Shown here piece after piece: positions 1,060-44,988 of a DNA stretch of 64,000 nucleotides. Source of the stretch: Syntrophaceae bacterium (GTDB lineage Bacteria > Desulfobacterota > Syntrophia > Syntrophales > Smithellaceae); NCBI GenBank assembly GCA_009773315.1, contig WRPE01000011.1, positions 132 through 64,131 of the forward strand, given 5' to 3'. The position numbers were made by a program, and so were the translations under genes. Below the pieces are notes generated by a model, which was given only the letters and a program-made list of their open reading frames with translations, did not search any database and had not been told where the DNA came from. Positions within the stretch are counted from its first letter, which is position 1. Each line of letters starts with the position of its first letter.

Positions 1060-1758
1060 ATGACTAAAATACTAATCGTGGATGATGAACAAGATATTGC
1101 TGATTTGATATCCTATAATTTGGAAAAGGAAGGCTATTCGACGATCAAGGCTTACGACGGTGGCGATGTTCTCAAAACCGTTAAAACACAAAAACCCGAT
1201 CTGGTTATTCTGGACTTAATGCTGCCCCATATGAACGGTATGGACATCTGCCGAGCCGTTCGCGCCAATCCGGAAACTGCTCATCTGCCGATTATTATGC
1301 TGACGGCAAAGTCCGATGAGGTGGATAAAATTATCGGGCTGGAAATCGGCGCCGATGATTACATGACCAAGCCCTTCAGCGTGAAAGAGCTTATCGCCCG
1401 GGTGAGAACGATTCTGAGGCGCTCCCAGGAAGGAAATAAGACGACGGTCAGAGAAACCTTTGAATTTGGCGGGCTGGCCATTAATTATGCGTCCTGCTCG
1501 GTGACGGTGGAGGGCAGGCCGGTCAAATTGAGCCCCACGGAACTGAAACTTCTTTTCTTCCTGTCCCGCAACCCCGGTCGGGTTTATTCGAGAGATCAGA
1601 TTCTGGATCATGTCTGGGGCGACGACACGTTTATCACCGACCGCGCCGTTGATGTCCATATCCGCCGTCTGCGCAGCCAGATCGAGAAAGATATGGAAAA
1701 TCCCCACTACATTGTGACCGTCCGTGGATTCGGTTATAAATTTGCAGAAGTCAAATAA
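1060..1758 (+). CDS. phoB: OmpR/PhoB-family response regulator (receiver plus winged-helix); probable partner of PhoR
   Basis: N-terminal receiver ILIVDDE...DLVILDLMLP...TAK and C-terminal trans_reg_C region LSPTELKLLFFL...VDVHIRRLR...VRGFGYKF. The phoB name rests on the pst-phoU-phoR context. Confidence 0.75.
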   Translation: MTKILIVDDEQDIADLISYNLEKEGYSTIKAYDGGDVLKTVKTQKPDLVILDLMLPHMNGMDICRAVRANPETAHLPIIMLTAKSDEVDKIIGLEIGADDYMTKPFSVKELIARVRTILRRSQEGNKTTVRETFEFGGLAINYASCSVTVEGRPVKLSPTELKLLFFLSRNPGRVYSRDQILDHVWGDDTFITDRAVDVHIRRLRSQIEKDMENPHYIVTVRGFGYKFAEVK

Positions 1759-1861
1759 ATCAGCGTTTTATTCATCAGACCTCATGGATATCTCCAAACA
1801 ACTTTGATCCTGTATATTTGTGCAGGACAAAATTCACTTATTTATTCAAAATATCTTTATT

Positions 1862-1895
1862 CCTTCATAATAGTGAAACATTAAAAACGTATCAT
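1862..1895 (+). promoter_or_regulatory. Candidate Pho-box-like element plus -10 hexamer upstream of the 1938-6512 cluster
   Basis: CCTTCAT-AATA-GTGAAAC (1862-1879) matches 10/14 positions of the E. coli Pho-box half sites CTGTCAT/CTGTAAC. Exactly 10 nt later comes TATCAT (1890-1895). The geometry is the same as at pstS (6676-6709). Confidence 0.35.
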
Positions 1896-1937
1896 CCCTT
1901 ACGAAAGCTGGAAGAATCAATGAGAAGGAGATGATGT

Positions 1938-3104
1938 TTGAATAGAGGAAATTTGGCAGGAAAAAATGATCCGGTAAGAGGGGTGCATGTTGCACCCAAG
2001 TCGATTCGGGTGATATCGGAAATAATCGGCGTTAAGTATGATCGGTTAGGTTTGAATCCCGGGTCCCTTCCTTTTGCGCCGACGGATACGACTGCCGGAA
2101 GCGAAGCGGAAATGCAGACGGTTGTTATGGGAGACAAGCAACATGTCGACTTGCCGCTATTTATCGAACAGTCCAACTATTTTGCCAATACGAAAAGACG
2201 AGCTGAGGCGGGGGATACATCCCGCAGGGTCATGACTGATCTGGAAAAATATTTAAATGGGAATGTGGAGGGTGTTTGGGAAAACAGTTGGGTGTTTTTT
2301 CCACGGGATAAAATGGGAGAATTCGCCAAAACAATTTTTCAGCATGACATTCTGGCGGACAAGTCGAATCCTTTTGCGGGTCAACGATCAGATTTAAATA
2401 GATTAATCTTCAAAGAAAATGGGTGCGAAAATATCCGGGTTCCGATCAGTTATCTTTTAAAGCTATCCCTGGCGGAAATCATCGATCCGCAGAATAAAGC
2501 CCATCCGCTTATCCACGCCACCGGCTTAAAAATCATGTCATCTTTTCTCAATGATAATACATCACCGGAGACTTCCTCCTTCTACGTTGTTGCCATGCAG
2601 TCGGAAACGGGTATGGGGCGGGTTGTAGCCAAAGAGATGGCGATCCGCTTTCTGTTAAGCCAGTTGCTGGTCATGTATGCCAATAAAAGATATTTGCTCC
2701 AGGAGAATGGACAAAAAGCGATGATCTTCTCATCACCGCATCCGCCGACCCGTCAGAAAATTTTAAGCCAGTGTGTTTCCGATGCGTTTTACCGGGAACT
2801 GTTCATGAATCCTTGCCTGTCCGGTTGGGATAAAGGTGAAGAAAAACATGAATACATGCATCTGTGTCACCGTGTTTTGAGCCGCAGCCAGTTCAACGCC
2901 GTCTTGAAACTACGGGAAGCGGGAATTATTACCAGCAATCTGGTGTCGTTGCCCAACTTATCCAATATCAGTCTGGCCAACAACGGCATTCATGTAAGTT
3001 TGGGGAGCAATAAACTCAGCCATCTGCTTGGCGATCCCTCGTCGGGATTTTCCGTGCGGGACGAAAAATATATCGGCGATCTGGGAATAATTCGCAGCGC
3101 TTGA
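1938..3104 (+). CDS. Hypothetical protein, 388 aa, no motif recognised. May be the N-terminal part of a roughly 700-aa protein split from the next ORF.
   Basis: Long ORF with TTG start 7 nt after SD GAAGGAG (1924-1930). It ends at TGA 3102-3104, overlapping the next ORF in TTGA. Confidence 0.6.
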   Translation: MNRGNLAGKNDPVRGVHVAPKSIRVISEIIGVKYDRLGLNPGSLPFAPTDTTAGSEAEMQTVVMGDKQHVDLPLFIEQSNYFANTKRRAEAGDTSRRVMTDLEKYLNGNVEGVWENSWVFFPRDKMGEFAKTIFQHDILADKSNPFAGQRSDLNRLIFKENGCENIRVPISYLLKLSLAEIIDPQNKAHPLIHATGLKIMSSFLNDNTSPETSSFYVVAMQSETGMGRVVAKEMAIRFLLSQLLVMYANKRYLLQENGQKAMIFSSPHPPTRQKILSQCVSDAFYRELFMNPCLSGWDKGEEKHEYMHLCHRVLSRSQFNAVLKLREAGIITSNLVSLPNLSNISLANNGIHVSLGSNKLSHLLGDPSSGFSVRDEKYIGDLGIIRSA

Positions 3105-4042
3105 AGGAGGACCTTGCCGACCTCGGTGTGTTTGACTCCAAAATGTCTCTTTATCTTCTGGAGAAGCTTCGCGAATACAAGGTCATGGGGTTTTCCGGAT
3201 TTGAAGGCCGTCATTACAGTCTTTTTGAAAGCTTTACGCAGGATATGGGACAGGCCGTAACACTGCAAAATCTTCTCTATCTTTTAGCCTTCAAATATAT
3301 TGTCAGCGGACAGATCGGTCATGAGCATATTCCGGATGATCCTTCCGTCGAAAGTGAACGACGGCAAGTGATTTTCGGCACGGCCATCGGCATTCCGACT
3401 TTCTTTGTGCACGAAAACACAGGGAATGCCCTGTTAAAAAAGATTATGGGTAAAACGGATCGCTTACGTATGAGCAGGCGCTATCCCGGATATACGCGTG
3501 TATACAACATTGAATACAGGCGGGCGTTGCTGAAAATTTTGCGCGACGATGCGGCCGATCTCATAGAAATGCTCAATATGCGGGAAGACATCAATGAACT
3601 GGAAACAAGGCTTTGCGAGCCGGATCGCTTCTCCGCCGCAGGCAAACTGACGTCCGGCATTCTGGGCATGGCCGGCGGCAAATCTCCCATGGATTTATGT
3701 GCCGATGATTTTAATCAGGCGGCGGAAAAATATTACCGGACGGACTTACGCAACCGGCATATCCGCGAGGCATTGGGATTGCTTGGTGAAGTTTTAAACA
3801 AACTGGAAAAAGTCTCCGATGGTCTAAGGCAGGACATAAGGTTTTTGATTAACGGTATTTTGCAGGAAAAGCCAGCCGGTGAATTTCTGGATCGCGCTCA
3901 GCAGGAAATTTTAAATGAAACCGCTTCCGCGGAGACGCTGGAGAAATTAATTAGTATTATTTTAGTACACATTCATTACAAAGCGGAGCTTAATCAAAAA
4001 TTTAAGGATACAACTTATGCAACATCATTACATAGAGCGTGA
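3101..4042 (+). CDS. Hypothetical protein, 313 aa, no motif recognised. May be the C-terminal part of a split gene.
   Basis: ORF lies in the -1 frame relative to the preceding ORF. The only start at the junction is TTG 3101 and it has no good SD. The 3' end overlaps the PSD-family gene by 26 nt. Confidence 0.5.
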   Translation: MKEDLADLGVFDSKMSLYLLEKLREYKVMGFSGFEGRHYSLFESFTQDMGQAVTLQNLLYLLAFKYIVSGQIGHEHIPDDPSVESERRQVIFGTAIGIPTFFVHENTGNALLKKIMGKTDRLRMSRRYPGYTRVYNIEYRRALLKILRDDAADLIEMLNMREDINELETRLCEPDRFSAAGKLTSGILGMAGGKSPMDLCADDFNQAAEKYYRTDLRNRHIREALGLLGEVLNKLEKVSDGLRQDIRFLINGILQEKPAGEFLDRAQQEILNETASAETLEKLISIILVHIHYKAELNQKFKDTTYATSLHRA

Positions 4043-5030
4043 TACACGCAGCATCAAAGCGGAGCAGTTTTACGGGGACCAGGCCGTGCAGTTCATTTAT
4101 GCCCGTATCCGGGAGCAATCATCATGGCTTTTTCGCAAGTTGATCAGCGCCAGAGTTTCACGCGCGCTGAGCTACATGAACTACGATGGAATTCTCGCCG
4201 ATCGCATGAGCAATTATCTCGATATTCACAGGCAATTGAATATTGAACCCCGTGAATGCCTGGATGCGCCGGAGCATTTGAACTCTTTGAGAAAAATATT
4301 TGAACGCAAAATCTGCTACTGGGAGTGCCGGCCAATGCCCCATGATCCCTGCGCCGTCGTATCGCCCGCTGATTCCCGGATGTTGTTGGGATCCTTTCAA
4401 GAAGAATCGGGGTTATTCATCAAGGATAAGTTTTTTAATTATGAGGAGATGTTCGGTTTTGATAAACGCACCTGGCTTGCAGCCTTTCAGGAAGGCGACT
4501 TTGCGGTATTCCGGCTGACGCCGGAAAAGTATAATTACAATCACACGCCTGTTGCCGGAAAAATAATCGACTTTTATCAAATCCCGGGAACCTATCACGC
4601 CTGTAATCCCAACGCCGTTATTTCCGTGGTGACGCCTTATTCCAAAAATAAGCGCGTCGTAACGATTATCGATACGGATGTGGAAGGCGGAACCAATGCG
4701 GGTCTGGTGGCTATGATAGAAGTGGTTGCGCTAATGATCGGAGATATCGTTCAGTGTTACAGTGAAAAAATGTATGAAAGCCCTGTGGTTGTGGGGACAG
4801 GCATGTCTATTAAAAAAGGCGTCCCCAAGAGCCTTTTTCGTCCCGGAAGCAGCACGGTTGTCTTGATCTTTCAAAAGGACAGAATTCGGTTTGCGGATGA
4901 TATCGTGGCGAATATGATTTATCCCGACGCCGAGAGCATTTTCAGCCGCGGCTTTGGGAAATCTCTGGTCGAAACGGATGTCAGGGTCAGATCATTTGTC
5001 GCCAGTTCTGTCATAAGCCGGATGACATGA
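4017..5030 (+). CDS. Phosphatidylserine decarboxylase-family (pyruvoyl-dependent) protein, divergent
   Basis: Contains VVSPADSRM (PSD SPADG-like motif), FRLTPEKYNYNHTPVAGK (position of the canonical DYHRxHxP motif) and FRPGSSTVVLIF (position of the LGST self-cleavage site). Confidence 0.7.
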   Translation: MQHHYIERDTRSIKAEQFYGDQAVQFIYARIREQSSWLFRKLISARVSRALSYMNYDGILADRMSNYLDIHRQLNIEPRECLDAPEHLNSLRKIFERKICYWECRPMPHDPCAVVSPADSRMLLGSFQEESGLFIKDKFFNYEEMFGFDKRTWLAAFQEGDFAVFRLTPEKYNYNHTPVAGKIIDFYQIPGTYHACNPNAVISVVTPYSKNKRVVTIIDTDVEGGTNAGLVAMIEVVALMIGDIVQCYSEKMYESPVVVGTGMSIKKGVPKSLFRPGSSTVVLIFQKDRIRFADDIVANMIYPDAESIFSRGFGKSLVETDVRVRSFVASSVISRMT

Positions 5031-5065
5031 GATGTTTTTCTTATTTATTAAAAAAGGAGGTTGTT

Positions 5066-5467
5066 ATGGTTAGGCAACAGAAAATCGAGTCCATCAGAAA
5101 CAAGCTGGTGAGGAAAATGGAAGAACTTTGGTCCAATGCGGGTCATACTCTGTCTAAAATGAAAAATGACGACGGTCGTTTTGCCGATCCCTTTGATCAG
5201 GCGGCAATCGAGTCCAATAAGTATGTTGAACTGGCCTGCCGTGATCGGGAAAGAGAATTAATGCTGGATATTAAGGAAACGATTCTGCGCATTGACCGGG
5301 GTTTATACGGCATTTGCGATCATTGCGGGAGAGTAATCCACGAAAAAAGACTACTGATTGAACCCATGAGCAAATTATGCATGGAATGCCAGAAGGAAAA
5401 AGAACGAAATCATAAAAGGAAAAACAGACAATGGGCCATGAAAGACATATCCTATAATCATGTTTGA
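5066..5467 (+). CDS. dksA: DksA/TraR-family C4 zinc-finger protein
   Basis: CDHCGRVIHEKRLLIEPMSKLCMECQ gives CxxC-N17-CxxC. The DxxDxA tip motif is present in FADPFDQAA. Strong SD AAGGAGG lies 6 nt before ATG 5066; the ORF track's 5027 start is probably too long. Confidence 0.75.
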   Translation: MVRQQKIESIRNKLVRKMEELWSNAGHTLSKMKNDDGRFADPFDQAAIESNKYVELACRDRERELMLDIKETILRIDRGLYGICDHCGRVIHEKRLLIEPMSKLCMECQKEKERNHKRKNRQWAMKDISYNHV

Positions 5468-6512
5468 TGAGATTTTTCTGCTGATTTTTTCGGGCGTGAT
5501 CGCCCTGTTATTCGCCTGGGCTTTCAGAACGCTTCCTGCGGAAGGCTGGCAGATTGTCGCCTGTTTGCCCGGACGAAAAAGCCCTGATGGTACTTGGCAT
5601 GGCGTTAATTTTACCTACTATGGTTTTTTTAACGCGGTGGCTTATGTATTTGCTGTCGTGATGTTCCTGCTGATGACGGGGTCTCTGGACATCACGATGG
5701 AGATCGCCTTGTCCGTGGTCATTCCGGTGCTGGCCATTTGCATGTGGGCCGCGCGTGTCATTGCCCGGCTGGTGGAAAAAAAACATCACACATTTTCCGT
5801 AGGAGCAGCCGCATTTACCGGCATCATCATTGCGCCGATCGTCATCATATTGCTTAACGCCACCGTTGGCCAATGGTGGGCGATCCATATCCCGGTGACC
5901 CAGACGATGGCCGCGATGTTTATTGCCTATGCCTTTGGAGAAGGAATGGGAAGGCTGGCCTGCATCAGTTTTGGTTGTTGTTATGGGAAGCCGCTGAAGG
6001 ATTGCAATCCTTTCATTAGAAAAATTTTCCGGCGGTGGAATTTCGTTTTTTGGGGAAAAACCAAAAAAATTGCTTATGCCGATGACCTCGAAGGCGTAGC
6101 GGTCATTCCAGTTCAGGCGTTGACGGCGGTTCTTTATACGGGAACCGGGCTTTTGAGTTTTTACCTTTTCTTAAAAGGCTTTGCCGCGGCGTCGTTAATT
6201 CTAACGCTGATGACAACACAGATCTGGCGTTTTGTTTCCGAATTCCTGCGCGCTGATTATCGGGGGAACGGTCGCATCAGCGCCTACCAGGTCATGACTT
6301 TGATAGCCATTGCTTATACCCTGGTGATTTTGACAGTGACGACTAAGTCAGGTGTTGCGGCACCGAATCTGCTTCTGGGGATTACCTCCCTGTGGAATCC
6401 CGGCCTGTTGATTTTTTTAGCGATTTTATGGGTGGTTTCTTTTGTTTACACAGGGAGAAGCAGTGTGACCACCTCATGGATAGACATTCAGGTTGTCAAA
6501 AAGAATATTTAG
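5460..6512 (+). CDS. Polytopic membrane protein of the prolipoprotein diacylglyceryl transferase (Lgt) family, divergent, 350 aa
   Basis: Multiple hydrophobic helices. GRLACISFGCCYGKP aligns with the Lgt signature GRLGNFINGELWG. The start overlaps the dksA end by 8 nt. Confidence 0.55.
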   Translation: MFDEIFLLIFSGVIALLFAWAFRTLPAEGWQIVACLPGRKSPDGTWHGVNFTYYGFFNAVAYVFAVVMFLLMTGSLDITMEIALSVVIPVLAICMWAARVIARLVEKKHHTFSVGAAAFTGIIIAPIVIILLNATVGQWWAIHIPVTQTMAAMFIAYAFGEGMGRLACISFGCCYGKPLKDCNPFIRKIFRRWNFVFWGKTKKIAYADDLEGVAVIPVQALTAVLYTGTGLLSFYLFLKGFAAASLILTLMTTQIWRFVSEFLRADYRGNGRISAYQVMTLIAIAYTLVILTVTTKSGVAAPNLLLGITSLWNPGLLIFLAILWVVSFVYTGRSSVTTSWIDIQVVKKNI

Positions 6513-6675: not shown

Positions 6676-6709
6676 TTCTCATCAAAATGTAACATTTAAG
6701 TTGTATATT
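6676..6709 (+). promoter_or_regulatory. Candidate Pho box plus -10 hexamer of the pstS promoter
   Basis: TTCTCAT-CAAA-ATGTAAC (6676-6693) matches 11/14 positions of the E. coli Pho-box half sites. Ten nt later comes TATATT (6704-6709). SD GGAGGA lies at 6729-6734 before ATG 6740. Confidence 0.4.
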
Positions 6710-6739: not shown

Positions 6740-7567
6740 ATGTTTAAGATGATTAAGAAAACGGCTTTTGGGCTACTGGTCACGTGCTTTGCAGCGGGGG
6801 CGGTATTCGCCTCTGAATCCATCGTTATCAAAGGGTCGACAACCGTATTACCGATCACTCAGGCGGTTGTTGAAACCTATATGAAGGCCAATCCGGGTGT
6901 GCAGATGTCTGTTTCCGGGGGCGGTTCCGGTGAGGGAATTAAGGCGATTATTGATAAAACAACGGATATCGCCATGTCATCACGCGCCATAAAAAAGGAA
7001 GAAATTGAGCTGGCAAAAACAAGAGGCGCCAACCCGGTGGAACATGTGGTCGGATTGGATGCGTTAATTCCAATCGTGCATCCGAGAAACAAAGTGAGCA
7101 ATTTATCCATTGATCAGTTAAGCCAGATTTATCAGGGCAAGATTACCAACTGGAAGGAAGTCGGCGGCGAGGATTTGAAAATCGTGGTCATTTCGCGCGA
7201 CACATCTTCCGGAACATTTGAATCATGGGACCACTTTATCATGAAAAAGATCAAAGTTACTCCCCGGGCCCAGATGCTGGCCTCCAGTGGAGCCGTGGCG
7301 ACCGCAGTGGCAAAAAACCGTTACGCCATATCCTATGTGGGAATCGGTTATCTGAATAAAAGCATAAAACCTCTTTCAGTAAACGGGATTACCGGATCAA
7401 TCGACGCAGCCCTCGATAAGAGTTATCCACTTGCGCGTGAGCTCTACATGTACACAAATGGCGAACCGCAGGGGGAGGCAGCTAAATTTATGACTTTTAT
7501 CAAATCGCGGGCAGGTCAGAAAATTGTGGCTAAAGTCGGATTTGTGCCCACGATGTCTTTAAAATAG
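6740..7567 (+). CDS. pstS: Phosphate ABC transporter substrate-binding protein PstS
   Basis: Signal peptide MFKMIKKTAFGLLVTCFAAGAVFA, then IKGSTTVLP...SGGGSGEG...SRDTSSGT, typical of PstS-family PBPs. The ORF-track start at 6575 is an upstream extension without SD. Confidence 0.9.
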   Translation: MFKMIKKTAFGLLVTCFAAGAVFASESIVIKGSTTVLPITQAVVETYMKANPGVQMSVSGGGSGEGIKAIIDKTTDIAMSSRAIKKEEIELAKTRGANPVEHVVGLDALIPIVHPRNKVSNLSIDQLSQIYQGKITNWKEVGGEDLKIVVISRDTSSGTFESWDHFIMKKIKVTPRAQMLASSGAVATAVAKNRYAISYVGIGYLNKSIKPLSVNGITGSIDAALDKSYPLARELYMYTNGEPQGEAAKFMTFIKSRAGQKIVAKVGFVPTMSLK

Positions 7568-7600
7568 TTCTTTGATAGATGCGTTTTTTACATAAGCGAG

Positions 7601-7656
7601 AAAATGGTTTTGCCGCGGCAATAAATGTTGTATAAACCGTTGCAAAGCCATTTTTT
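7601..7656 (+). terminator. Intercistronic stem-loop / partial terminator between pstS and pstC
   Basis: Imperfect 18-nt arms AAAATGGTTTTGCCGCGG (7601-7618) and CCGTTGCAAAGCCATTTT (7637-7654), followed by T residues. A pstS-distal attenuator is a common arrangement. Confidence 0.45.
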
Positions 7657-7723
7657 CATGAGATTGGAACAGAGATGATTTTATGATTGCACCCATGCCC
7701 ATATTGTGTATAAAAGGACCGCA

Positions 7724-8611
7724 ATGAACCGGAAAACAAAAGAAATATTCATAAAATATATCTTCTTTCTTTTCGCTTTGGTTGCGATCATCGTTTTGGC
7801 GATGATCGTATTTTCTCTCTTTCGTGAAGGAATGCCGATATTCAAGCAGGTATCTGTCAAAGATTTTCTGTTTGGAATGGAATGGTATCCAACCTACGAC
7901 CCGCCTTATTTCGGTATATTCCCGCTGATTGTCGGTTCATTCATTGTAACCATATTTGCTACTTTAATTGCGGTACCCCTGGGAGTGCTGGCCGCCATTT
8001 ATATTTCTGAGATCGCCCCGCGCTCGATTAAAGAAATTCTGAAATCCGTAATCGAGCTTCTGGCCGGTTTGCCTTCGGTTGTTTTGGGATTTTTCGGCAT
8101 GGTGGTTATCGCACCCGTTTTACAAAATGTATTCGACCTTCCCACGGGCCTGAACATTGTCAACGCTTCAATGATTCTTGCGTTGATGGCAATCCCTACA
8201 ATATCCAGTATTTCCGAAGATGCTCTCTATGCGGTGCCGCAGGAGTTCAAGGAAGCGTCTTATGCTCTGGGTGCGACCAAGTTTGAAACCATCGCTAAGG
8301 TTATTTTTCCGGCTGCTCTTTCCGGTGTAACCACCGCAGTCATGCTGGGCATGGCCAGAGCCATCGGAGAAACAATGGTTGTGCTGATGGTGGCAGGCGG
8401 TGCGGCGGCCATTCCGGAGAGCATTTTTGATTCCGTGCGTCCCATGCCCGCGAGCATTGCTGCCGAAATGGGGGAAACTCCCTACCGCAGTCTGCATTAT
8501 CATGCTCTTTTCGCCACCGGCATGGTTTTGTTCTTTCTGACGCTGGCATTCAATTTAATTGCGGATTACGTATCCAATAAATTCAAGCAGACAGGTTCTG
8601 CCACTCTTTAA
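7724..8611 (+). CDS. pstC: Phosphate ABC transporter permease PstC
   Basis: Six-TM permease with the EAA-type loop EASYALGATKFETI. ATG 7724 follows SD AAAAGGA. Confidence 0.9.
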   Translation: MNRKTKEIFIKYIFFLFALVAIIVLAMIVFSLFREGMPIFKQVSVKDFLFGMEWYPTYDPPYFGIFPLIVGSFIVTIFATLIAVPLGVLAAIYISEIAPRSIKEILKSVIELLAGLPSVVLGFFGMVVIAPVLQNVFDLPTGLNIVNASMILALMAIPTISSISEDALYAVPQEFKEASYALGATKFETIAKVIFPAALSGVTTAVMLGMARAIGETMVVLMVAGGAAAIPESIFDSVRPMPASIAAEMGETPYRSLHYHALFATGMVLFFLTLAFNLIADYVSNKFKQTGSATL

Positions 8612-8623
8612 AAGGAAAGAAGC

Positions 8624-9502
8624 ATGCATCAGATTCAGGCAAGCACAATGAAATGGCGCTATCTCCAGCAATCATTGTTTTTTGCTCTTATCCGCGGGGC
8701 GGCGCTGATTATCACGCTGGCTCTGGGCGGCATCATCTTATATATCATTATACACGGGATTTCTGCCATCAGCTGGGACTTTATTACCAAGCCTCCAACG
8801 CATTCAATGACACAAGGCGGCATCATGCCCGCCATTTTAGGAACGATATATCTTACAGTCGGCGCGATTTCCATTGGTCTGCCTCTGGGAGTCGCTTCGG
8901 CCATCTATCTGTCGGAATATGCCAGGCAGGGCAGGATGATCCGATTGATCAGGGTGGGGATTAATTGTCTGGCCGGCGTTCCTTCGGTTGTTTTCGGTCT
9001 ATTCGGACTTGCTTTCTTTGTGATTTTTTTCGGGCTTGGTTCAAGTATTCTGGCTGGTTCTTTAACCCTGGGATTCCTGATTCTGCCGACGATCATCGGC
9101 GCCTCGGAAGAAGCGCTGAAGTCTGTGCCAAAGACATTTCGGGAAGCGTCGCTGGCGTTGGGGGTATCCAAGTGGCAGACGATTTTCCGTATTGTTTTGC
9201 CCAACGCCCTGCCGGGAATTCTAACCGGGTCTATTCTGGGTATCGGCCGTGCCGCAGGGGAAACCGCTCCGATCATGTTCACCGCTGCTGCATTTTTCAC
9301 TTCCAAACTTCCCAATTCTGTTTTTGATGAGGTGATGGCCCTGCCTTACCATATTTATGTTTTAGCGACAGCAGGGACAAATATCGAGGAAACGCGTCCG
9401 ATTCAGTATGGGACGGTATTGGTTCTGGTGACGCTTGTTCTGGGTATCAATATGATAGCCATCATTATACGAGCTTATATGAGAAGAAATAAAAGGTGGT
9501 AG
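8624..9502 (+). CDS. pstA: Phosphate ABC transporter permease PstA
   Basis: Permease with [20 protein letters not shown] and GRAAGETAP motifs. It is second in the pst gene order. Confidence 0.9.
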
Positions 9503-9504
9503 AG

Positions 9505-10263
9505 ATGGATGCAGATATGATCATCAGACTGAAGAATGTTAACTTTTACTATGGTGAAAACCAGGCGCTGACCAATATAAACATGAATTTCCGCAAAAAC
9601 AAAGTTACCGCCTTAATTGGTCCTTCCGGATGCGGCAAATCAACGCTCCTTCGGCTGCTCAACAGAATGAATGAATTGATCGACGCGACGCGCGTGGAGG
9701 GAGAGATTATATTTGAGGACAAGAATATCTATGCGCCCGATGTGGATCCGGTCGAAATCCGCCGCAAAATCGGCATGGTTTTTCAAAAACCCAACCCTTT
9801 TCCGAAGACCATCTACAACAATATTTCCTACGGACCGAAGCTGACCGGTGTGCCGGTTCATGATATGAGCGCTCTGGTGGAGCAGAGCCTCAAGCAGGCG
9901 GTTCTGTGGGATGAAGTCAAGGACATTCTCAACAAGTCCGCCATGAACCTGTCCGGGGGCCAGCAGCAGCGGCTTTGCATCGCGCGGGCGCTGGCGATGA
10001 AGCCGGATATTTTGCTGATGGACGAGCCGACCTCCGCGCTCGATCCCATCTCGACTGCAAAAATTGAGGAACTGATTGAAGAACTGAAAAAGGACTATAC
10101 GATTATTATCGTGACACATAACATGCAGCAGGCGGCCCGCATCTCCGACGAAACCGCTTTCTTTTATCTGGGGAATCTGATCGAGTACAGCAAAACGGAG
10201 AAAATATTCACCAAGCCGGACGTCAAGCAGACGGAAGACTACATCACAGGAAGATTCGGTTGA
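9505..10263 (+). CDS. pstB: Phosphate ABC transporter ATP-binding protein PstB
   Basis: Walker [10 protein letters not shown], signature LSGGQQQRL, Walker [16 protein letters not shown] 9505 follows SD AAAGGTGG. Confidence 0.95.
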
Positions 10264-10282
10264 GAATCAGGGGGAGGATACA

Positions 10283-10969
10283 ATGGAAGAAAGACGACAC
10301 ACCAGCTCGCACTATGAAAAAGAGCTCAAGGAGATTAAAAACTCTTTGATCTACCTGGGCGCTTTGACTGAGAAAGCGATAAAAGGCGCGATGAAATCCC
10401 TTTCGGATCGAGACTCGGAACTTGCCCGCAAAGTCATCAAGGATGATGACGCAATCGACCGTCTGGACTCAGATCTGGAAGAGCGCTGCATTAAAATCCT
10501 GGCGCTTCGGCAGCCGACGGCAATCGATCTGCGCTTCATCACCACCGCGATTAAAATCACCGGGCATCTGGAACGCATCGGCGACATGACCGTCAACATT
10601 GCCGAAAAAGCCATTCAGCTAAACGAGGTGCCGCAACTTAAACCCTATATCGATTTGCCCCGCATGACGGATCTGGTGGGCGCCATGATCAAAGATTCAC
10701 TCGACAGCTTTATTGCAGGCGATCTGAAGCTGGCAGAAAAAGTTCGCCAGACCGAACAGGTGATTGACGATCTCAATGAGCAGATATTCCGGGAGCTTTT
10801 GACCTTTATGATGGAGGATTCCAAATCGATTCATCGCGCTTTGCTGATTATGCAGATTTCCAAGAATATGGAACGCATTGCTGATCATGCGAAGGGGATC
10901 TCCGACATGGTCACCTACATGGTGACGGGAGAGTGCGTCCGTCATCAAACCTGTCCGCTTGCCGAATGA
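10283..10969 (+). CDS. phoU: Phosphate signalling complex protein PhoU
   Basis: Two PhoU repeats with ERIGD (...HLERIGDM...) and MERIADHA motifs. It lies directly after pstB. Confidence 0.9.
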   Translation: MEERRHTSSHYEKELKEIKNSLIYLGALTEKAIKGAMKSLSDRDSELARKVIKDDDAIDRLDSDLEERCIKILALRQPTAIDLRFITTAIKITGHLERIGDMTVNIAEKAIQLNEVPQLKPYIDLPRMTDLVGAMIKDSLDSFIAGDLKLAEKVRQTEQVIDDLNEQIFRELLTFMMEDSKSIHRALLIMQISKNMERIADHAKGISDMVTYMVTGECVRHQTCPLAE

Positions 10970-10978
10970 GGATCGAAC

Positions 10979-12724
10979 GTGAAGGGTAAACTATTTTTTA
11001 AAATACTGTTTTCCTATCTTGCGATCATTTTCCTGTCATTTTTGATTCTGAATTCGTTCATTAAGGACGAAATTCGGGATGTCCTGACCGGTAAAATCGA
11101 GCGTGAGCTATTTGCTTACGCTCGATTGATCGATTTGAATATACCCTCTGAAACATCCGCGCAGCTGACGCAGGTCGCCTTGATTTCAAGGGCCCGTGTG
11201 ACACTGGTTGACAGGCAGGGGAAGGTGCTGGCGGATTCGCTTCTGGACGCGTCGGGACTCGAAAATCATTTAAACCGGCCCGAAGTGCAGGAAGCCAGGG
11301 TTCGTGGCGAGGGCAGGGCCACCAGCCTGAGTACGTCGGACCGTGCAGGAATGCTCTATGTTGCCGTTGCGGTTAGGGACAGCTCGGATATCATCGGCTA
11401 CGTCCGTTTGGCCCGCTCGCTCGATGATGTTAAAAAAACCGTCGACGAGGTATATGCCTCGTTTTTGATGGCCCTGATCCTCACGTCGACGTTGTCGCTG
11501 ATTCTGGCGTTGATCTTTTCGTTCTACATTACAAAGCCTGTTCGGATCCTGGAAAAATTTACCGAGAAACTGCGTCGCGGGGAGCCTTCGGGGACGCTCA
11601 TTTTGCAGACATCCGATGAAACAAAAATACTCGCTGATAATATCAACTACCTGGTGGAAGAACTTCAAAGTCAGATCCGTCTGGCCAACGAAGAGAAGAG
11701 CAAGCTTATGGCCGCCTTCACCAGCATGACGGAAGGGGTGTTGATCGTCGACGCCTCCGATCAGATTGAATTCGTAAGTGCCGTCCTCCAGGGAATCTTG
11801 CTTGAACCCTACGGCGGCATCGAAGGGAAGACGCTGATGGAGGCATTTCGGAATGTGGAGCTGCACAAAGCGTTTCACCGGTTCAAACTGACGAGAGAAG
11901 TCGTGTCCGCCGAGATCGTGCTCGACAGTATAGAACCGGTCATCATGAACGTGAGCATTTCCGGGGTTCACGGGTATCCCGGTGAAGAAAAAACCATGGT
12001 TGTGTTTCATGACGTGACAAGGTTAAAAAAGCTGGAAAGGATCCGTACAGACTTTGTCGCCAACGTCACGCATGAAATCCGCACGCCCCTGACGGCGATT
12101 ATCGGTTATCTGGAAACCCTTCAGGAGGGAGCACTTCAGAACACGGAAGATGCCAAACGGTTTATCGAAATTTTGCTCAAACAGGCGCAAAGACTTAACC
12201 GTCTGGTGGAAGATCTGATGATCATCTCCAGAATTGAACTGGGTGAGGTAAAATTCCTTTTCGAGGATGTATATCTCCCGGATATCATCGGTGGTGTGAT
12301 TCCTCTTTTGGAAGCTAAAGCGGCGGTCAAAAATATTCGCATCGAGAATCATGTGCCGGAAAAGATGCTGCCTGTAAGGGGAGACCGCGACAGGCTAAGC
12401 CAGGTCTTTGTCAATGTGCTGGATAACGCTGTGAAGTTTACCCCCGGTGGCGGCAGTGTGACAATTAATGCTGAAGAAAAAGCAGGGAACATGGTTGTTG
12501 CGATTACCGATACCGGAATGGGCATTCCCAGAGAAGAAATCCAGCGCCTGGGTGAGCGGTTTTATCGCGTGGACAAAACACGGTCGCGCGACCTGGGCGG
12601 CACAGGCCTTGGCCTGTCGATTGTCAAACACCTGATGCTCTCGCACGGCGGAAGAATGGAAATCGAAAGTCAGTTGGGGCACGGTACAAAAGTCTCTTTA
12701 TTTTTCCCGATTGGGAAAGCATAA
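10979..12724 (+). CDS. phoR: Phosphate regulon sensor histidine kinase PhoR-like
   Basis: N-terminal TM segments, PAS-like region, HisKA box FVANVTHEIRTPLT, and HATPase N/G boxes (NAVKFTP..., DTGMGIP, GGTGLGLSIVK). Confidence 0.85.
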   Translation: MKGKLFFKILFSYLAIIFLSFLILNSFIKDEIRDVLTGKIERELFAYARLIDLNIPSETSAQLTQVALISRARVTLVDRQGKVLADSLLDASGLENHLNRPEVQEARVRGEGRATSLSTSDRAGMLYVAVAVRDSSDIIGYVRLARSLDDVKKTVDEVYASFLMALILTSTLSLILALIFSFYITKPVRILEKFTEKLRRGEPSGTLILQTSDETKILADNINYLVEELQSQIRLANEEKSKLMAAFTSMTEGVLIVDASDQIEFVSAVLQGILLEPYGGIEGKTLMEAFRNVELHKAFHRFKLTREVVSAEIVLDSIEPVIMNVSISGVHGYPGEEKTMVVFHDVTRLKKLERIRTDFVANVTHEIRTPLTAIIGYLETLQEGALQNTEDAKRFIEILLKQAQRLNRLVEDLMIISRIELGEVKFLFEDVYLPDIIGGVIPLLEAKAAVKNIRIENHVPEKMLPVRGDRDRLSQVFVNVLDNAVKFTPGGGSVTINAEEKAGNMVVAITDTGMGIPREEIQRLGERFYRVDKTRSRDLGGTGLGLSIVKHLMLSHGGRMEIESQLGHGTKVSLFFPIGKA

Positions 12725-12752
12725 TCTTTCCGAATTCTCGAAGGAGCAGAAG

Positions 12753-13577
12753 ATGGAAAGCCAAATAGCCAAAGCCATACAATTTAAATATCAGCCGGTC
12801 GCGCTTCTCTGGTCCGAGGAGAAGCCGGCGGACGCGATGCAATTTTCCGAAGGCAAGTGGGGCTGTGTGATGTGGCTGGCCGTTTCTGCGGCCAAAGGCA
12901 AACCGGCTGTGGCCGATAGAAAAACCTTCGGTTGTGCCGGCGGCGGCGTGGGGTTGGGTTTCGGTAATCAGTATCTGAACTTTCCCGGCGGAGAAGAAGG
13001 GTTCTGTCACTTCCTCTCATCGGGGAATGCCGGACGTCCCGGCGGACCGGAACTGGCGAAGCAAATCAAACCTTTCATGACCAAGGAGAGTCATGATCAT
13101 TTCCTGTATGGCGAACGTTATATCAAAAGCCCGGAACTTGTTTCCAAGTTTGTTCATGCGCTGCCGATGACGGACATTCCGGGAAAGTACGTGGTGTTCA
13201 AACCGCTGTCCACGGTTGATGTAACCCAAGAAAAACCGCAGACGATTATTTTTTTTGCCAACCCTGATCAACTCTCCGCGTTAACGGTGTTGGCCAATTA
13301 TGGACGCGGCAACAATGAAAACGTGATGATCCCTTATGCCGCCGGTTGCCAGACCATCGGTATTTACCCTTACCGCGAAGCCAAATCAACTAAGCCTCGT
13401 GCCGTTGCGGGCCTCACCGATCTATCCGCCCGCGTCTATGTCCGCAAACAACTGGACGATCCCCATTTCATGACCTTTGCCGCTCCTTTTGCGCTCTTTG
13501 AGGAGATGGAACAAAACGTCCCCGGCTCTTTCCTGGAGCGGCATACATGGCTCAGTTTGATGAAAGAGAAGCCATGA
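12753..13577 (+). CDS. DUF169-family protein
   Basis: ...YQPVALLWSEEKP...GKWGCVMW...TFGCAGGGVGLGFG resembles DUF169 (COG2043). SD AAGGAG precedes ATG 12753. The gene starts 28 nt after the phoR stop with no terminator between. Confidence 0.55.
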   Translation: MESQIAKAIQFKYQPVALLWSEEKPADAMQFSEGKWGCVMWLAVSAAKGKPAVADRKTFGCAGGGVGLGFGNQYLNFPGGEEGFCHFLSSGNAGRPGGPELAKQIKPFMTKESHDHFLYGERYIKSPELVSKFVHALPMTDIPGKYVVFKPLSTVDVTQEKPQTIIFFANPDQLSALTVLANYGRGNNENVMIPYAAGCQTIGIYPYREAKSTKPRAVAGLTDLSARVYVRKQLDDPHFMTFAAPFALFEEMEQNVPGSFLERHTWLSLMKEKP

Positions 13578-18150: not shown

Positions 18151-20385
18151 TTGATGAATTTGCCGATCAGATTGAGACAATATATCGGAATGGTAACGGG
18201 GGCGATTTTTGTCCTGTGCGTGAGCAGCAATATTTTTGCTCAGGATATCAAAGTACCTGCTGACGCACCGGTAAAGATCGAAGCGGATAACCTGTCCTAC
18301 GATAACGAACGCGATGTTTACTCGGCTTTTGGCAATGTCGTCATAACTTATGGTGATGGTGTCTTAACCGCCGCCAACGTTGAGTTTGATCGAAAGAATA
18401 ATCTTGCGACCGCAGAGGGCGGTGCATTTCTGAAGATGGCGGAGGATTCGCTCGCGGGCGATAAAATAGTTGTTAATGTACAGAATAAAACCGGTGCGGC
18501 CTATAACGCCAAAGCCTTTTACGCGCGCAATCATTTCTACATAAAAGGGGACAAAATCGAGAAAACCGGCGAGAATAGCTATCGTATCGAAAAGCCTTTG
18601 GCCACTACTTGTGACGGCGAGAATCCCGACTGGCAACTGGCCGGATCGGAGATGGAATTGACCGTTGAAGGGTACGGCTGGTTGAAGAATGCCCGCTTGA
18701 TGACCAAAGGCGTGCCGGTAATCTATACCCCCCTCATAGCGTTTCCCGCGAAAACCAAGCGCCAGACAGGATTGCTTTTCCCTTATCTTGCCTACTCCAG
18801 AGATAAAGACGGTGTAGATGTCGAGATTCCTTTTTTCTGGGCGATTAATCCCCAAATGGACGCGACATTTTATTCGCGTTACATCGAAAAAAGAGGATTT
18901 AAAGAAGGCGCGGAATTCCGGTATTTCGCTGGCAGCAAGTCTTTTGGCACGCTCTATGGCGACTATATGGAAGACAACAAACACGTTACGGAAACCATCG
19001 GCAACACGTTAAGCCGCGACTGGCAGGATATGCACAGGCGATGGTCTTTCATGGTCAATCATCAGACGAATTTTGATTCGCAATTTTATGTCCGGACAGA
19101 TTTGCGTCGTGTTTCCGATGCGTGGTATTTTCGTGACTTTAATGCTCATAACTATTATTTGACTCATTATACCGGTTCGGAAGAAGACCCTTTTCGGAAA
19201 ATTCCTTTTCAAGGGAATGAGTCCTTGCGTTCTCTCGAATCATCGGCGCGTGTGTTCAAGGGATGGAATAACTATAATGTGATGGCGCGCGTCAGCTCAA
19301 CGGACGATTTTGCGGTCAACAATAATGACCGGACCCTGCAACAGTATCCGGAGATCGTTTTGACCGGCATCAAGCAGCCGCTTTTTTCCACGCCTGTGTA
19401 TTTTGAATTTGCCGGTCATTATGACTATTTTTACCGGGGCGAAGGATCCAGAGGGCACTATGTTGATCTTTCGCCGACGATTTCACTGCCTTTTAACATT
19501 TCCAGTTATGCGAAGATCACCCCGCAACTCACTGTGCGGGAAATCTATTGGAATCGCGAAGACAATGCGTTTGATTCCGAAAATAGAAGCGGCAGCCGCA
19601 CGATTTATAATGCCGGCCTAACGGTCAGCAGTCGGCTTTCCCGCGTTTTCGATGTCAGCATTCTGAACTGGGACAAAGTCCGGCATGAAATCAAACCCGA
19701 AGTTTTTTATTCCTATACGCCCGGTGTCCGACAAGACAATATTCCCGATTATTTGCCGAAGATAAGTTCGTTGCTCGATCCATTCACGTCTTTTAATATC
19801 AATAACACAAATGTCTTAACCGAACAAAACGCGTTGGCCTGGTCTCTTACCAATACGGTTACCGCCCGGATCAAAGACAAAACCAGGATTGGTAATTATT
19901 TGGAATTATTACGCTTTAAGCTGTTTCAGGTCTATGACATTAACGAAGCCAGAAAAGAGATGGCAGGATCCACCGGGGATAGGCGACCCATGTCGGATAT
20001 AGGGATGGAGCTTGATCTGAAGCCCCATTCTTATTTGTCCTTTGCGGCCCGTAATAAATATAGTCCCTACAGCGGCTGGAAAGAAATGAACTATGATCTG
20101 GCCATCAGTGACTGGCGCGGTGATAAGCTGACGTTCGGTTACCGTTATACGCGGGATTCCATCGAAGAGATTAATATGGACTTAAAAGCGGTCATCACCG
20201 AGCGCCTGAGTGGCCAATTCGTTATCCGGCGTGATCAGTTTAACAATCAGACCGTGGAAACCACGGTTGGACTGGTCTATACGGAGCAATGCTGGGGTGT
20301 GGGGGTGGCCTATACCAAGACACACGATGATGAAAGAATTATGCTGAAAATATCCCTGGCCGGATTAGGTATGCTTGGGATTTGA
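18151..20385 (+). CDS. lptD: LPS-assembly outer-membrane protein LptD
   Basis: Signal peptide, OstA-like N-terminal domain (IEADNLSYDNERDVYSAFGNVV...) and a large C-terminal barrel (GLLFPY..., WGVGVAY...). Confidence 0.85.
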   Translation: MMNLPIRLRQYIGMVTGAIFVLCVSSNIFAQDIKVPADAPVKIEADNLSYDNERDVYSAFGNVVITYGDGVLTAANVEFDRKNNLATAEGGAFLKMAEDSLAGDKIVVNVQNKTGAAYNAKAFYARNHFYIKGDKIEKTGENSYRIEKPLATTCDGENPDWQLAGSEMELTVEGYGWLKNARLMTKGVPVIYTPLIAFPAKTKRQTGLLFPYLAYSRDKDGVDVEIPFFWAINPQMDATFYSRYIEKRGFKEGAEFRYFAGSKSFGTLYGDYMEDNKHVTETIGNTLSRDWQDMHRRWSFMVNHQTNFDSQFYVRTDLRRVSDAWYFRDFNAHNYYLTHYTGSEEDPFRKIPFQGNESLRSLESSARVFKGWNNYNVMARVSSTDDFAVNNNDRTLQQYPEIVLTGIKQPLFSTPVYFEFAGHYDYFYRGEGSRGHYVDLSPTISLPFNISSYAKITPQLTVREIYWNREDNAFDSENRSGSRTIYNAGLTVSSRLSRVFDVSILNWDKVRHEIKPEVFYSYTPGVRQDNIPDYLPKISSLLDPFTSFNINNTNVLTEQNALAWSLTNTVTARIKDKTRIGNYLELLRFKLFQVYDINEARKEMAGSTGDRRPMSDIGMELDLKPHSYLSFAARNKYSPYSGWKEMNYDLAISDWRGDKLTFGYRYTRDSIEEINMDLKAVITERLSGQFVIRRDQFNNQTVETTVGLVYTEQCWGVGVAYTKTHDDERIMLKISLAGLGMLGI

Positions 20386-22520: not shown

Positions 22521-23990
22521 ATGCCTCAAAAAATATTTAATACCAGAACAAGACAAAAGGAAACACTTAAACCGATTAAAGAGGGTGCTGTCGGCATGTA
22601 TGTTTGCGGCATTACGGCATACGACGTCTGCCACGTCGGTCATGCCCGCGCAGCGGTGGTTTTTGATGTGGTTTTCCGGCATTTAAAGGCGAGTGGTTAC
22701 AATGTGACGTATGTCAAAAACTTTACCGATATTGACGACAAAATCATTGATCGGGCGAATAAAGAAGGCGTCGGCATTGCTCAAATAGCCGAACGGTATA
22801 TCAAACTGCATGATGAAGATATGGCAGCGCTCAATGTTCTGACACCCACCGTGACGCCAAAGGCGACCGAGCATATGGCGGAGATGATCACTTTGATTTC
22901 AATGCTGGAGAAAAAAGGCATTGCTTACTCAGTGGACGGCGATGTGTTTTTTGCGGTGAATAATTTTCCTGCATACGGCGGATTGTCAGGACGCCATTTG
23001 GATGAAATGACGGCTGGCGCCCGCGTGGACATCAATGACAAGAAAAGGAACCCGCTGGATTTTGTGCTGTGGAAAAAGAGTAAGGAAGGCGAGCCTTTCT
23101 GGGAAAGTCCGTGGGGAGAGGGCAGGCCGGGCTGGCATATTGAATGCTCGGCCATGAGCCGGCGTTATCTGGGCGAGACATTCGACATTCATGGGGGCGG
23201 CGAAGACTTGGTTTTCCCGCATCACGAAAATGAAATTGCTCAATCTCAAGCGGCAACGGGAAAACCCTTGGCCAATTATTGGATGCACAATGGTTTTGTG
23301 AAGATCAACGCCGAAAAGATGTCTAAATCACTGGGGAATATCTTTCCGATACGGGAGATCATCAAACAATACCATCCGGAAGCCTTACGCCTGTTTATGC
23401 TCCAGAGCCATTACCGAAGCCCCGTGGATTATTCGGATACGTCGCTCAAAGAAGCCAGGACGGCGCTTATTCGCTGCTATACTGCCCTGCAGCTCATGAA
23501 AGAAACGCGGGCGTTAGCCCCGCAAGCACAAGAAAAGCTTCTACCCACACCGTTGGAGTACGTTCATAAATTAAATGAATTAAAAGAAAAGTTTAACGCC
23601 GCGCTGGACGATGATTTTAATACAGCGCAGGCCCTGGGTTATATTTTCGACACTGCCCGGTTGATTAATAATATTACGACTGCGGAAAAGAAGATGCCCG
23701 TATCAACCAAGCAGGTCATCCTGGAAACGGCAGCACGTGTATTTATGCATTTTGGCGATGTGCTGGGTGTTTTTCAGTCTGATCCGGAGATCTTCTTTCA
23801 AATCGACCGCGATATGGAAGTCGGGAAGCGCGGCCTGGATGTTTCCAAAATAGAAGCGCTGATTCTGGAGCGGCAAAAAGCCCGCGAAGGAAAAGACTGG
23901 AGCCGGGCTGACGATATCCGTCAGGAACTGGCTTCGCAGAATGTTATCTTGAAGGATGCAGCAGGCCAGACAACCTGGTCGATAGAGTAG
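22521..23990 (+). CDS. cysS: Cysteine--tRNA ligase
   Basis: HIGH-type motif (CHVGHAR), WHIECS zinc/cysteine-binding region and KMSKSLGN. Confidence 0.97.
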   Translation: MPQKIFNTRTRQKETLKPIKEGAVGMYVCGITAYDVCHVGHARAAVVFDVVFRHLKASGYNVTYVKNFTDIDDKIIDRANKEGVGIAQIAERYIKLHDEDMAALNVLTPTVTPKATEHMAEMITLISMLEKKGIAYSVDGDVFFAVNNFPAYGGLSGRHLDEMTAGARVDINDKKRNPLDFVLWKKSKEGEPFWESPWGEGRPGWHIECSAMSRRYLGETFDIHGGGEDLVFPHHENEIAQSQAATGKPLANYWMHNGFVKINAEKMSKSLGNIFPIREIIKQYHPEALRLFMLQSHYRSPVDYSDTSLKEARTALIRCYTALQLMKETRALAPQAQEKLLPTPLEYVHKLNELKEKFNAALDDDFNTAQALGYIFDTARLINNITTAEKKMPVSTKQVILETAARVFMHFGDVLGVFQSDPEIFFQIDRDMEVGKRGLDVSKIEALILERQKAREGKDWSRADDIRQELASQNVILKDAAGQTTWSIE

Positions 23991-41285: not shown

Positions 41286-41454
41286 GTTTTTTCCTGCTAA
41301 CTCAATTTTAGTGATGAACTGGAATAACAAACTCCCGCCATTTTCACAACATCATATTTCCGGAAACGATGTTCAACAGGGAAAATGGTCGATGATTTAC
41401 TTCTTGAAAAACCTATTCGGAATTGTTAGATAACAAGAAAAATGAGGTGTTTTT

Positions 41455-44986: not shown

Positions 44987-44988
44987 GT

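Follow-up and report, generated by a model that had tools for sequence, protein, structure and literature searches.

Under phosphate shortage, replacing phospholipids is one of the main strategies of microbes, and the described phosphorus-free-lipid systems closest to the present case are PlcP-Agt, BtaAB (diacylglyceryltrimethylhomoserine, DGTS) and OlsBA/OlsF/OlsH. The phosphate-regulated phospholipase PlcP is a metallophosphoesterase. Two further enzyme types concern us here: the PSD family acts as pyruvoyl phosphatidylserine decarboxylase, and Lgt is the phosphatidylglycerol:prolipoprotein diacylglyceryl transferase. Among the carriers of the genes described below, which are anaerobes of sediment, peat and digesters (Syntrophales, Geobacteraceae, Desulfobacterota relatives and Acidobacteriota), only OlsF-, OlsH- and PlcP-type routes are, to our knowledge, known as candidates. 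We analysed a block of genes beside the phosphate-transport operon in a 64-kb stretch of DNA from a Syntrophaceae bacterium (contig WRPE01000011.1; hereafter the window, in which all positions are counted). The block holds a gene for a large putative ligase (hereafter the ligase), read here as two open reading frames (ORFs) of 388 aa (ORF1) and 313 aa (ORF2), followed by genes for a PSD-like decarboxylase, a DksA-like protein and a divergent Lgt-like membrane protein. No published description of this gene combination, and no report of its three enzyme types together, was found in the searchable literature, so that the system, as an earlier note on this DNA had supposed, is apparently undescribed.

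A conserved core of putative ligase, PSD-like decarboxylase and Lgt-like membrane protein

Relatives of the ligase were present in at least 591 species-level loci in a scan of 185,579 species genomes. Neighbourhoods were counted in 80 fetched loci. When the ORFs of the 80 loci were clustered, the only common members were the ligase (77), the PSD-like protein (63) and the Lgt-like protein (62); the next clusters were PhoB-like (35; the same cluster as the window's regulator), DksA-like (29) and Pst/PhoU/PhoR (21–28). Among ORFs of at least 90 aa there was no further conserved partner or small substrate ORF. The PSD-like gene adjoined the 3' end of the ligase gene in 67 of the 71 loci with room for it, and the Lgt-like gene was present in 60/65. 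The DksA-like gene occurred in 29/65, all of them Syntrophales-type loci; it is a lineage-specific passenger and not a core member. The conserved core is therefore the ligase, the PSD-like decarboxylase and the divergent Lgt-like membrane protein, and it recurs in Syntrophales, Geobacteraceae, Syntrophobacter, Desulfomonile, Syntrophorhabdus and Acidobacteriota.

Sequence comparison did not place the ligase in any described family. Neither ORF1 nor ORF2 matched Pfam or NCBIfam, and 25 ligase homologues scanned singly against Pfam gave no relevant match even at E-values up to 5. There was no meaningful match to PDB sequences (best E 0.56), and hhalign detected no sequence signal against Escherichia coli GshA (E = 0.62); by these four routes (Pfam, NCBIfam, PDB and hhalign) the ligase fell in none of Glu_cys_ligase, GCS2, GCS, Pup_ligase and Gln-synt_C. 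A profile search of 1.84 billion representatives returned a compact family of 622 clusters at 50% identity with full-length members of 750–825 aa, and all 150 matches listed from that search were members of the family, either full-length or fragments. Lengths from a word-indexed protein search were misleading, since its 120 best matches were all truncated members (at most 679 aa); the exhaustive search of representatives just described lists many full-length ones (750–824 aa). The ligase family is thus large and highly conserved, and has no curated Pfam or NCBIfam model.

Structure prediction was more informative. A first AlphaFold model, built on a shallow alignment of 25 truncated homologues, had a mean predicted local distance difference test score (pLDDT) of 68 and gave no usable Foldseek match. 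The model of an intact homologue of 816 aa (P0121), from a 72-sequence alignment led by a full-length member, reached a pLDDT of 93.1 and a predicted TM-score (pTM) of 0.93. Its eight top Foldseek matches in the PDB were all GshA, GshF, PafA or yeast glutamate-cysteine ligase (GCL), and included the glutamate-cysteine ligases 3nzt, 2d32, 1va6, 1v4g and, from yeast, 3ig5, the bifunctional GshF 3ln7 and the Pup ligase PafA 4bjr. These eight had probabilities of 0.41–0.99, target-normalised TM-scores of 0.28–0.47 and E-values of 8e-3 to 0.27, and the next ranks had probabilities of at most 0.06. Because the E-values are marginal, we take the kinship to lie at the level of fold and not of family membership.

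The conserved residues of the family are consistent with such a fold. E56, E58, H352, E536 and R538 were invariant in the homologue alignment, and the motifs GSExE, WENSW, NNGTH and FEGR were conserved. By eye, GSE53xE55, E112, NNGTH350 and FE534xR536 of P0121 parallel GLE27RE29, E67, GVH150 and IE328VR330 of E. coli GshA, where the GxExE, E, GxH and ExR positions are metal and phosphate ligands. All four motif positions lie on beta strands of the P0121 model and in the same order as in GshA, again as mapped by eye. At its C-terminal end the model has a helical domain of some 170 residues (helices 635 to 801), and hydropathy analysis found no hydrophobic segment in the ligase. From the predicted structure we read the protein as a new family of ATP-dependent carboxylate-amine ligase; the fold would imply ATP-dependent activation of a carboxylate as an acyl-phosphate, which is then joined to an amine with release of ADP and Pi. 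The earlier note had found no assignable motif in the first two ORFs and had proposed profile and structure searches. The sequence profiles indeed yielded nothing, while Foldseek on the model of the intact protein pointed, at marginal E-values, to a GCL/PafA-type fold.

The note's assignments of the remaining three genes to the PSD, DksA and LGT families (PF02666, PF21157/PF01258 and PF01790) were borne out. The PSD-like protein scored 123.9 bits against PF02666 (cut-off 22) and fell under every NCBIfam equivalog cut-off (NF001941, 122.3 vs 371; TIGR00163, 75.7 vs 111.75). Its alignment to NF001941, the bacterial PSD model, ran over the whole length (residues 4–299), N-terminal region included. 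It aligned to E. coli PSD structures at 2e-9, with PAD and YxxxHxP matching E. coli PSD. D119, H176 and G277-S278-S279-T280 were invariant in 61 orthologues, and the self-cleavage site is intact.

The Lgt-like protein is far more divergent. It passed the PF01790 cut-off (33.8 bits vs 24.9), scored 33.6 against the NCBIfam equivalog NF000778 (cut-off 334) and, in a phmmer search of all PDB chains at E-values up to 10, had no match, solved Lgt included. In an hhalign alignment to E. coli Lgt (E = 0.1), R165 fell on R143, and T120, C168 and C173 stood at H103, N146 and E151. An invariant W-R257-x3-E261-x2-R264-x-D266 resembles E. coli R239/E243/R246 by eye. Taking the essential residues of E. coli Lgt to be H103, R143, N146, E151, R239 and E243, this set is only partly kept. 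The DksA-like protein exceeded the cut-offs of both its Pfam domains and fell under that of TIGR02420 (91.7 vs 115.5); a DPFDQAA tip motif (DxxDxA) and four cysteines are visible in its sequence. Its start at ATG 5066 is the same as in the public gene call on L085, and in Syntrophales-type loci this third gene would supply a DksA-type RNA-polymerase-binding factor.

A deletion in the ligase gene

The earlier note had described the block as a translationally coupled cluster of five ORFs, the first two without an assignable motif. Its coordinates for the five co-oriented ORFs (1938–3104, 3101–4042, 4017–5030, 5027/5066–5467 and 5460–6512) and its junctions (in order, a 4-nt overlap, a 26-nt overlap, a 35-nt gap when DksA starts at ATG 5066, and an 8-nt overlap) were reproduced. 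Its count of genes was not, as there are four, one of them disrupted, and the 388-aa and 313-aa ORFs are not two genes. ORF1-like and ORF2-like parts lay within a single ORF in 80/80 related loci, of about 814–819 aa (for example, 814 aa in locus L008 and 819 aa in Syntrophus buswellii DM-2, whose genome is complete), and the spacing between the two matches was 351 nt in 73 of the 80. ORF1 carries the motifs GSE56AE58 and NNGIH352. Its residues 20–384 were 54% identical to residues 20–385 of a T. lovleyi homologue (P0033), and residues 1–119 of ORF2 were 61% identical to residues 503–620 of that protein; the approximately 117 residues in between have no counterpart in the window.

Blastn breakpoints and comparison of flanks with five related loci (L003, L002, L024, L007 and L020) placed the missing 340 nt at positions 1576–1915 of L003. 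The sequence at the junction runs GATCTGG on the 5' side and GAATAATTC on the 3' side. The lost segment includes some of the family's most conserved residues, such as KIxEHFLPLF and HELDYTHLRMxWRRW, and a search for it elsewhere in the window, as would follow relocation, gave no match. Past the junction the ORF1 frame meets a TGA at 3102–3104, and no Shine-Dalgarno site precedes TTG 3101, the start of ORF2. No record was returned when the exact products of the 388-aa and 313-aa fragments were looked up. By their sequence, the two ORFs are fragments of one disrupted gene; since a deletion split them, their 4-nt overlap is an accidental by-product and not translational coupling. The practical message for this genome is that the 388-aa and 313-aa gene calls are pieces of a disrupted gene.

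The deletion could be an assembly artefact, with the organism itself holding an intact ligase gene. Both fragments are otherwise free of stops and are 75–82% identical to close relatives, so that any inactivation would be very recent, and artefactual splits do occur on indel-rich contigs in other metagenomic members of the family. Against this, the loss is a clean 340-nt block and no homopolymer indel, and the NCBI metagenome-assembled genome contig encodes an identical Lgt-like protein. A second, differently named public contig from another assembly, possibly built from shared reads (ENA ERZ27284380, k139_583297), matches the window at 100% identity over 10,030 nt, junction included. Because of this identical sequence and junction, the deletion is probably a real allele and an artefact is rather improbable. 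The ligase is probably inactive in this genome.

Two other explanations of interrupted ligase frames were rejected. Selenocysteine read-through or a programmed frameshift at ORF1/ORF2 is ruled out, as the two ORFs are in different frames and lack between them 340 nt that all 80 relatives have. A truncation hot spot in the ligase gene, proposed from two truncated close relatives (P0001 and P0008), is likewise ruled out, their contigs being indel-rich with many other split genes. When the contigs of five ligase members recorded as partial were fetched, four of the five genes reached the contig end and the fifth stopped 66 nt before it. In two further members, P0012 (582 aa, on an 86-kb Joint Genome Institute contig) and P0066 (618 aa), the ligase frame runs straight into the middle of the PSD-like protein; in each, an in-frame internal deletion has removed the C-terminus of the ligase along with the N-terminus of the PSD-like protein. 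Counting the 340-nt loss in the window, there are three independent deletions within this operon.

Phosphate, lipids and the proposed function of the module

The Pho box consists of 7-bp direct repeats at 11-bp phasing, about 10 nt upstream of a −10 element. The motif TCATN5TGNAACAT occurs twice in the 64 kb, 5' of the operon and 5' of pstS, where 0.06 occurrences are expected, and related Smithellaceae loci have it at the same two positions, 5' of the ligase gene and 5' of pstS. A slightly relaxed form was found upstream of 19/74 ligase genes and 11/17 pstS genes. The element of one locus (L026), CTGTCAT-CAAA-CTGCAAC, is near the E. coli Pho box consensus. Outside Smithellaceae, 11-bp-phased repeats were seen by eye in other lineages. 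About 200 nt 5' of the ligase gene in five Geobacteraceae loci (L054, L058, L061, L070 and L075) stand four tandem units at 11-bp phasing, GTAACAC-AACA-TTTACAC-AGCG-AAAACAC-GTTC-GTCACAA, followed by TATATGAT, which resemble a lineage-specific Pho box; similar CTTCAC repeats occur in Syntrophobacter (L040 and L053) and Syntrophorhabdaceae (L080) loci. At a Pelobacter locus (L066, about 9780–9960) the promoter is unreadable, a masked run of N lying directly 5' of the ligase gene.

Gene neighbourhood points the same way. Of the 40 loci flanked on both sides by at least 8 kb, 22 had pst/pho genes within about 10 kb, in varying arrangements and in lineages that include Blastocatellales (L059) and Pelobacter (L066). 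On a Desulfurivibrio contig pstSCAB-phoU leads straight into the ligase gene, with phoU adjoining it, and in four loci (L010, L035, L056 and L080) alkaline phosphatase genes are downstream. A tie of the module to the phosphate regulon is supported by this neighbourhood in several orders and two phyla together with the shared Pho-box-like promoter element, and we infer that PhoB controls the operon. As to whether the five-gene order and its pst/pho linkage are kept in relatives, a check proposed by the earlier note, the ligase/PSD/Lgt-like core is kept, the DksA-like gene is confined to one lineage, and pst/pho linkage holds for just over half of the well-flanked loci.

The operon partners in other lineages bring in lipids. 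Directly 3' of the Lgt-like gene in six Geobacteraceae-type loci are genes for a DUF2062 protein and a Zn-dependent phospholipase C; at one of these (L058) all five genes, the core and this pair, are tightly packed on one strand. On a Victivallales contig a metallophosphoesterase, a DUF3419 (BtaA-like) protein, a methyltransferase and, after them, the ligase are encoded on one strand with 4-nt overlaps. DUF3419 is the annotation of a putative betaine-lipid synthase, a BTA1 homologue, in Microchloropsis gaditana (PMC10685587). The metallophosphoesterase, DUF3419 and methyltransferase trio occurs only by the Victivallales copy, and the Zn-dependent phospholipase C only in the six Geobacteraceae-type loci. 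We read a lipid role from these phospholipase C and betaine-lipid partners. The phosphate-linked lipid module that the earlier note proposed thus gains from the neighbourhood, the Pho-box-like element and the lipid-gene partners, and loses DksA as a core member.

Our preferred reading, which we hold as about evenly balanced between right and wrong, is that the module would serve, under Pho control, to rebuild the head groups of glycerolipids when cells are starved of phosphate. The lipid substrates, order of steps and product would be as follows. The Lgt-like enzyme would move diacylglyceryl from phosphatidylglycerol to a non-phosphate acceptor, freeing glycerol phosphate; the PSD-like enzyme would decarboxylate a lipid-bound alpha-amino acid to a primary amine; and the ligase would add an amide-linked carboxylate or amine to the head group. 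A bolder version, which we regard as speculative and unlikely as it stands, has the core enzymes starting directly from phosphatidylglycerol and making a new class of glycerolipid without phosphorus. The acceptor of the diacylglyceryl group moved by the Lgt-like enzyme would here be a free amino acid, modified on its side chain (in cysteine or homocysteine, for example, on the thiol), and the glycerol phosphate released would be salvaged for its phosphate. The PSD-like enzyme would then decarboxylate the resulting phosphatidylserine look-alike to an amine, which the GCL-fold ligase would cap with a gamma-glutamyl-type residue. If true, the head-group chemistry would be new and the GCL/PafA fold would gain its first lipid-directed member, in a pathway widespread among anaerobic Desulfobacterota and Acidobacteriota.

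Several observations weigh against head-group rebuilding under Pho control. No Foldseek E-value reached 0.001 or below and there is no sequence-level link to the GCL families. The PSD-like protein also has weak matches to PsiD-type tryptophan decarboxylases, and PSD-family enzymes can use soluble amino acids. Counterparts of E. coli H103, N146 and E151 are missing from the Lgt-like protein, so diacylglyceryl transfer from phosphatidylglycerol is not assured. A crude test for 11-bp-phased half-sites outside Smithellaceae was positive in 35% of cases vs 6.5% of control windows, an enrichment of only about five-fold on which we do not rely, and no pho genes were present in the flanks of 18 of the 40 well-flanked loci, nor in three further upstream contexts. 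Finally, with the ligase disrupted in the window, this organism may have no working pathway at all.

The main rival is that the ligase and the decarboxylase make a soluble amide or amine derived from an amino acid for use in phosphate stress, of the thiol, polyamine-like or compatible-solute type, the Lgt-like protein being an accessory membrane partner without lipid action, for example in export or anchoring. The characterised relatives of the ligase fold (GshA, GshF and PafA) all use soluble or protein substrates, the ligase has no hydrophobic segment of its own, and the PsiD matches belong to soluble-substrate decarboxylases of the PSD family. Set against a soluble product are the Lgt-like gene, which is as conserved as the PSD gene (62 vs 63 loci) and overlaps its neighbours, the match of the PSD-like protein to the bacterial PSD model over its whole length, and the phospholipase C and betaine-lipid genes that are operon partners in other lineages. 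We judge a soluble product to be unlikely.

Lower still we place lipoprotein remodelling, in which the Lgt paralogue lipidates prolipoproteins with another donor when phosphatidylglycerol is scarce and the other two enzymes supply or modify that donor. Membership of the Lgt Pfam family speaks for it, as do the changes relative to E. coli Lgt, which sit in the motif around R143 and could alter the choice of donor or acceptor. However, no lipobox protein, signal-peptidase II gene or Lnt gene is conserved nearby in the 80 loci, a large ATP-dependent ligase would have no role, and H103, N146 and E151, which are catalytic in Lgt, are not preserved. We hold this explanation to be quite improbable. 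That the block is an ordinary housekeeping psd and lgt, lying by chance beside an unrelated hypothetical gene and the pst operon, is hardly credible: both proteins have the corresponding Pfam domains and some sources name the last gene 'prolipoprotein diacylglyceryl transferase', but both score far under the NCBIfam equivalogs (122 vs 371 and 75.7 vs 111.75 for PSD; 33.6 vs 334 for Lgt), no sequence match between the Lgt-like protein and solved Lgt structures could be detected, and the three-gene linkage is kept across orders and phyla.

Should the module indeed make a lipid, part of the phosphorus-free lipids of anoxic environments that are still unassigned would be accounted for. The new branch of the GCL fold and the Lgt paralogue would then also have a function open to testing.

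Layout of the block and comparison with known systems

The block is one operon with a Pho-box-like element at its 5' side and four genes, the first of them disrupted here. Its features and those of its immediate flanks are listed in the table below.

Table. Features of the operon and its flanks in the 64-kb window
Feature	Position	Strand	Evidence and remarks
PhoB-like OmpR-family response regulator	1060..1758	+	Pfam Response_reg and Trans_reg_C; immediately 5' of operon
Pho-box-like operon promoter	1862..1895	+	7-4-7 repeats CCTTCAT-AATA-GTGAAAC (1862–1879); −10-like TATCAT (1890–1895), 10 nt downstream
Ligase gene, 5' part	1938..3084	+	Residues 1–382 of an approximately 815-aa protein; TTG start, GAAGGAG Shine-Dalgarno
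Deletion junction	3084..3085	.	340 nt (about 113 codons + 1 nt) missing relative to every relative, giving a frameshift
Ligase gene, 3' part	3085..4042	+	Shifted frame; approximately residues 498–815 of intact homologues; FE35GR37 motif and C-terminal helical domain
PSD-family pyruvoyl enzyme, 337 aa	4017..5030	+	PF02666, 8.9e-36; 26-nt overlap with end of ligase gene
DksA-family C4 zinc-finger protein, 133 aa	5066..5467	+	PF21157, PF01258; ATG 5066 preceded by AAGGAGG Shine-Dalgarno
Divergent Lgt-family polytopic membrane protein, 350 aa	5460..6512	+	PF01790; at least 7 hydrophobic segments; invariant GRLACISFGCCYG motif
Second Pho-box-like promoter, 5' of pstS	6676..6709	+	TTCTCAT-CAAA-ATGTAAC (6676–6693); −10-like TATATT (6704–6709)
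pstS (from ATG 6740), pstC, pstA, pstB, phoU, phoR-like kinase	6740..12724	+	

The position of the block between a phoB-like regulator and pstSCAB-phoU-phoR, as given in the earlier note, was confirmed by NCBIfam matches on both flanks. PstS-family, PstC, PstA, PstB and PhoU proteins each exceed their cut-offs. The regulator and the kinase fall below theirs: the top match of the former was TIGR02154 PhoB at 275.8 bits, just under the cut-off of 296.2, and the closest models of the latter were PnpS, WalK and PhoR. A consensus scan found no terminator between 6512 and pstS; the scan is not informative, as it gave fewer terminator-like sites than shuffled sequences.

Some further features of the window are recorded here. 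A DUF169 (PF02596) gene at 12711–13577 shares 14 nt with the end of the phoR-like kinase gene, an arrangement that would fit co-transcription with the pst-pho operon. Just 5' of phoB an ORF of 86 aa (714–974) consists solely of an EF-Tu/EF-G domain-2-like fold and is preceded by a near-consensus sigma-70 promoter (TTGACA-17-TATACT, 608–636); such an ORF also stands just 5' of phoB in about 15 related Smithellaceae-type loci. At 300–345, 3' of a short ORF ending at 280, a GC-rich inverted repeat (CCCCGCGGGATTTTCGCCCGCGGGG) followed by a T-run resembles a strong intrinsic terminator. An ORF of 991 aa (46983–49958) has two Mur-ligase domain sets, apparently a fused MurE-MurF, and starts an apparent cell-wall and division gene cluster (44983–62015). 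A gene for the selenocysteine-specific elongation factor SelB (39372–41330, minus strand) indicates that UGA is read as selenocysteine in some genes of the organism. LptD (18151–20385), CysS (22521–23990) and TolB (31067–32389, minus strand) point to an ordinary chromosomal context.

Each core protein can be set beside a described one. Within the glutamine-synthetase-like carboxylate-amine ligase superfamily, which has in common an active-site funnel of antiparallel beta-sheet, the predicted fold of the 816-aa homologue matches GshA, GshF and PafA only. The ligase differs from these in having no detectable sequence similarity to them, in being about 300 residues longer with its extra C-terminal helical domain, and in its partners, which are the PSD-like and Lgt-like genes and not glutathione or Pup-proteasome genes. 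The PSD-like protein resembles bacterial Psd (PF02666, PRK00723-type) in its near full-length domain and in its invariant D-H-S residues and GS(S)T self-cleavage motif; it differs in lying under all equivalog cut-offs and in being partnered with the ligase and never with pssA. With Lgt, the Lgt-like protein shares a Pfam LGT score above cut-off, a polytopic membrane topology, a counterpart of R143 and, by eye, counterparts of R239/E243/R246. The similarity is very weak and does not extend to a match with solved Lgt structures. Other residues take the places of H103, N146 and E151, a Cys-rich GRLACISFGCCYG motif is invariant, and the protein is 60 residues longer than E. coli Lgt.

The earlier note had also held that the composition of the block is unlike that of the known phosphorus-free-lipid systems, and none of their enzymes is indeed found in the conserved core. 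No core protein is homologous to Agt, BtaA/B or OlsA/B/F/H, and the core contains neither a glycosyltransferase nor an acyltransferase. For an ATP-dependent ligase in aminolipid synthesis, OlsH is a precedent (PMC12971839). In common with PlcP-Agt, BtaAB and OlsBA/OlsF/OlsH, the module has a Pho-box-type promoter and lies adjacent to pst/pho genes, and in some lineages its operons hold a phospholipase C, or a BtaA-like protein together with a methyltransferase.

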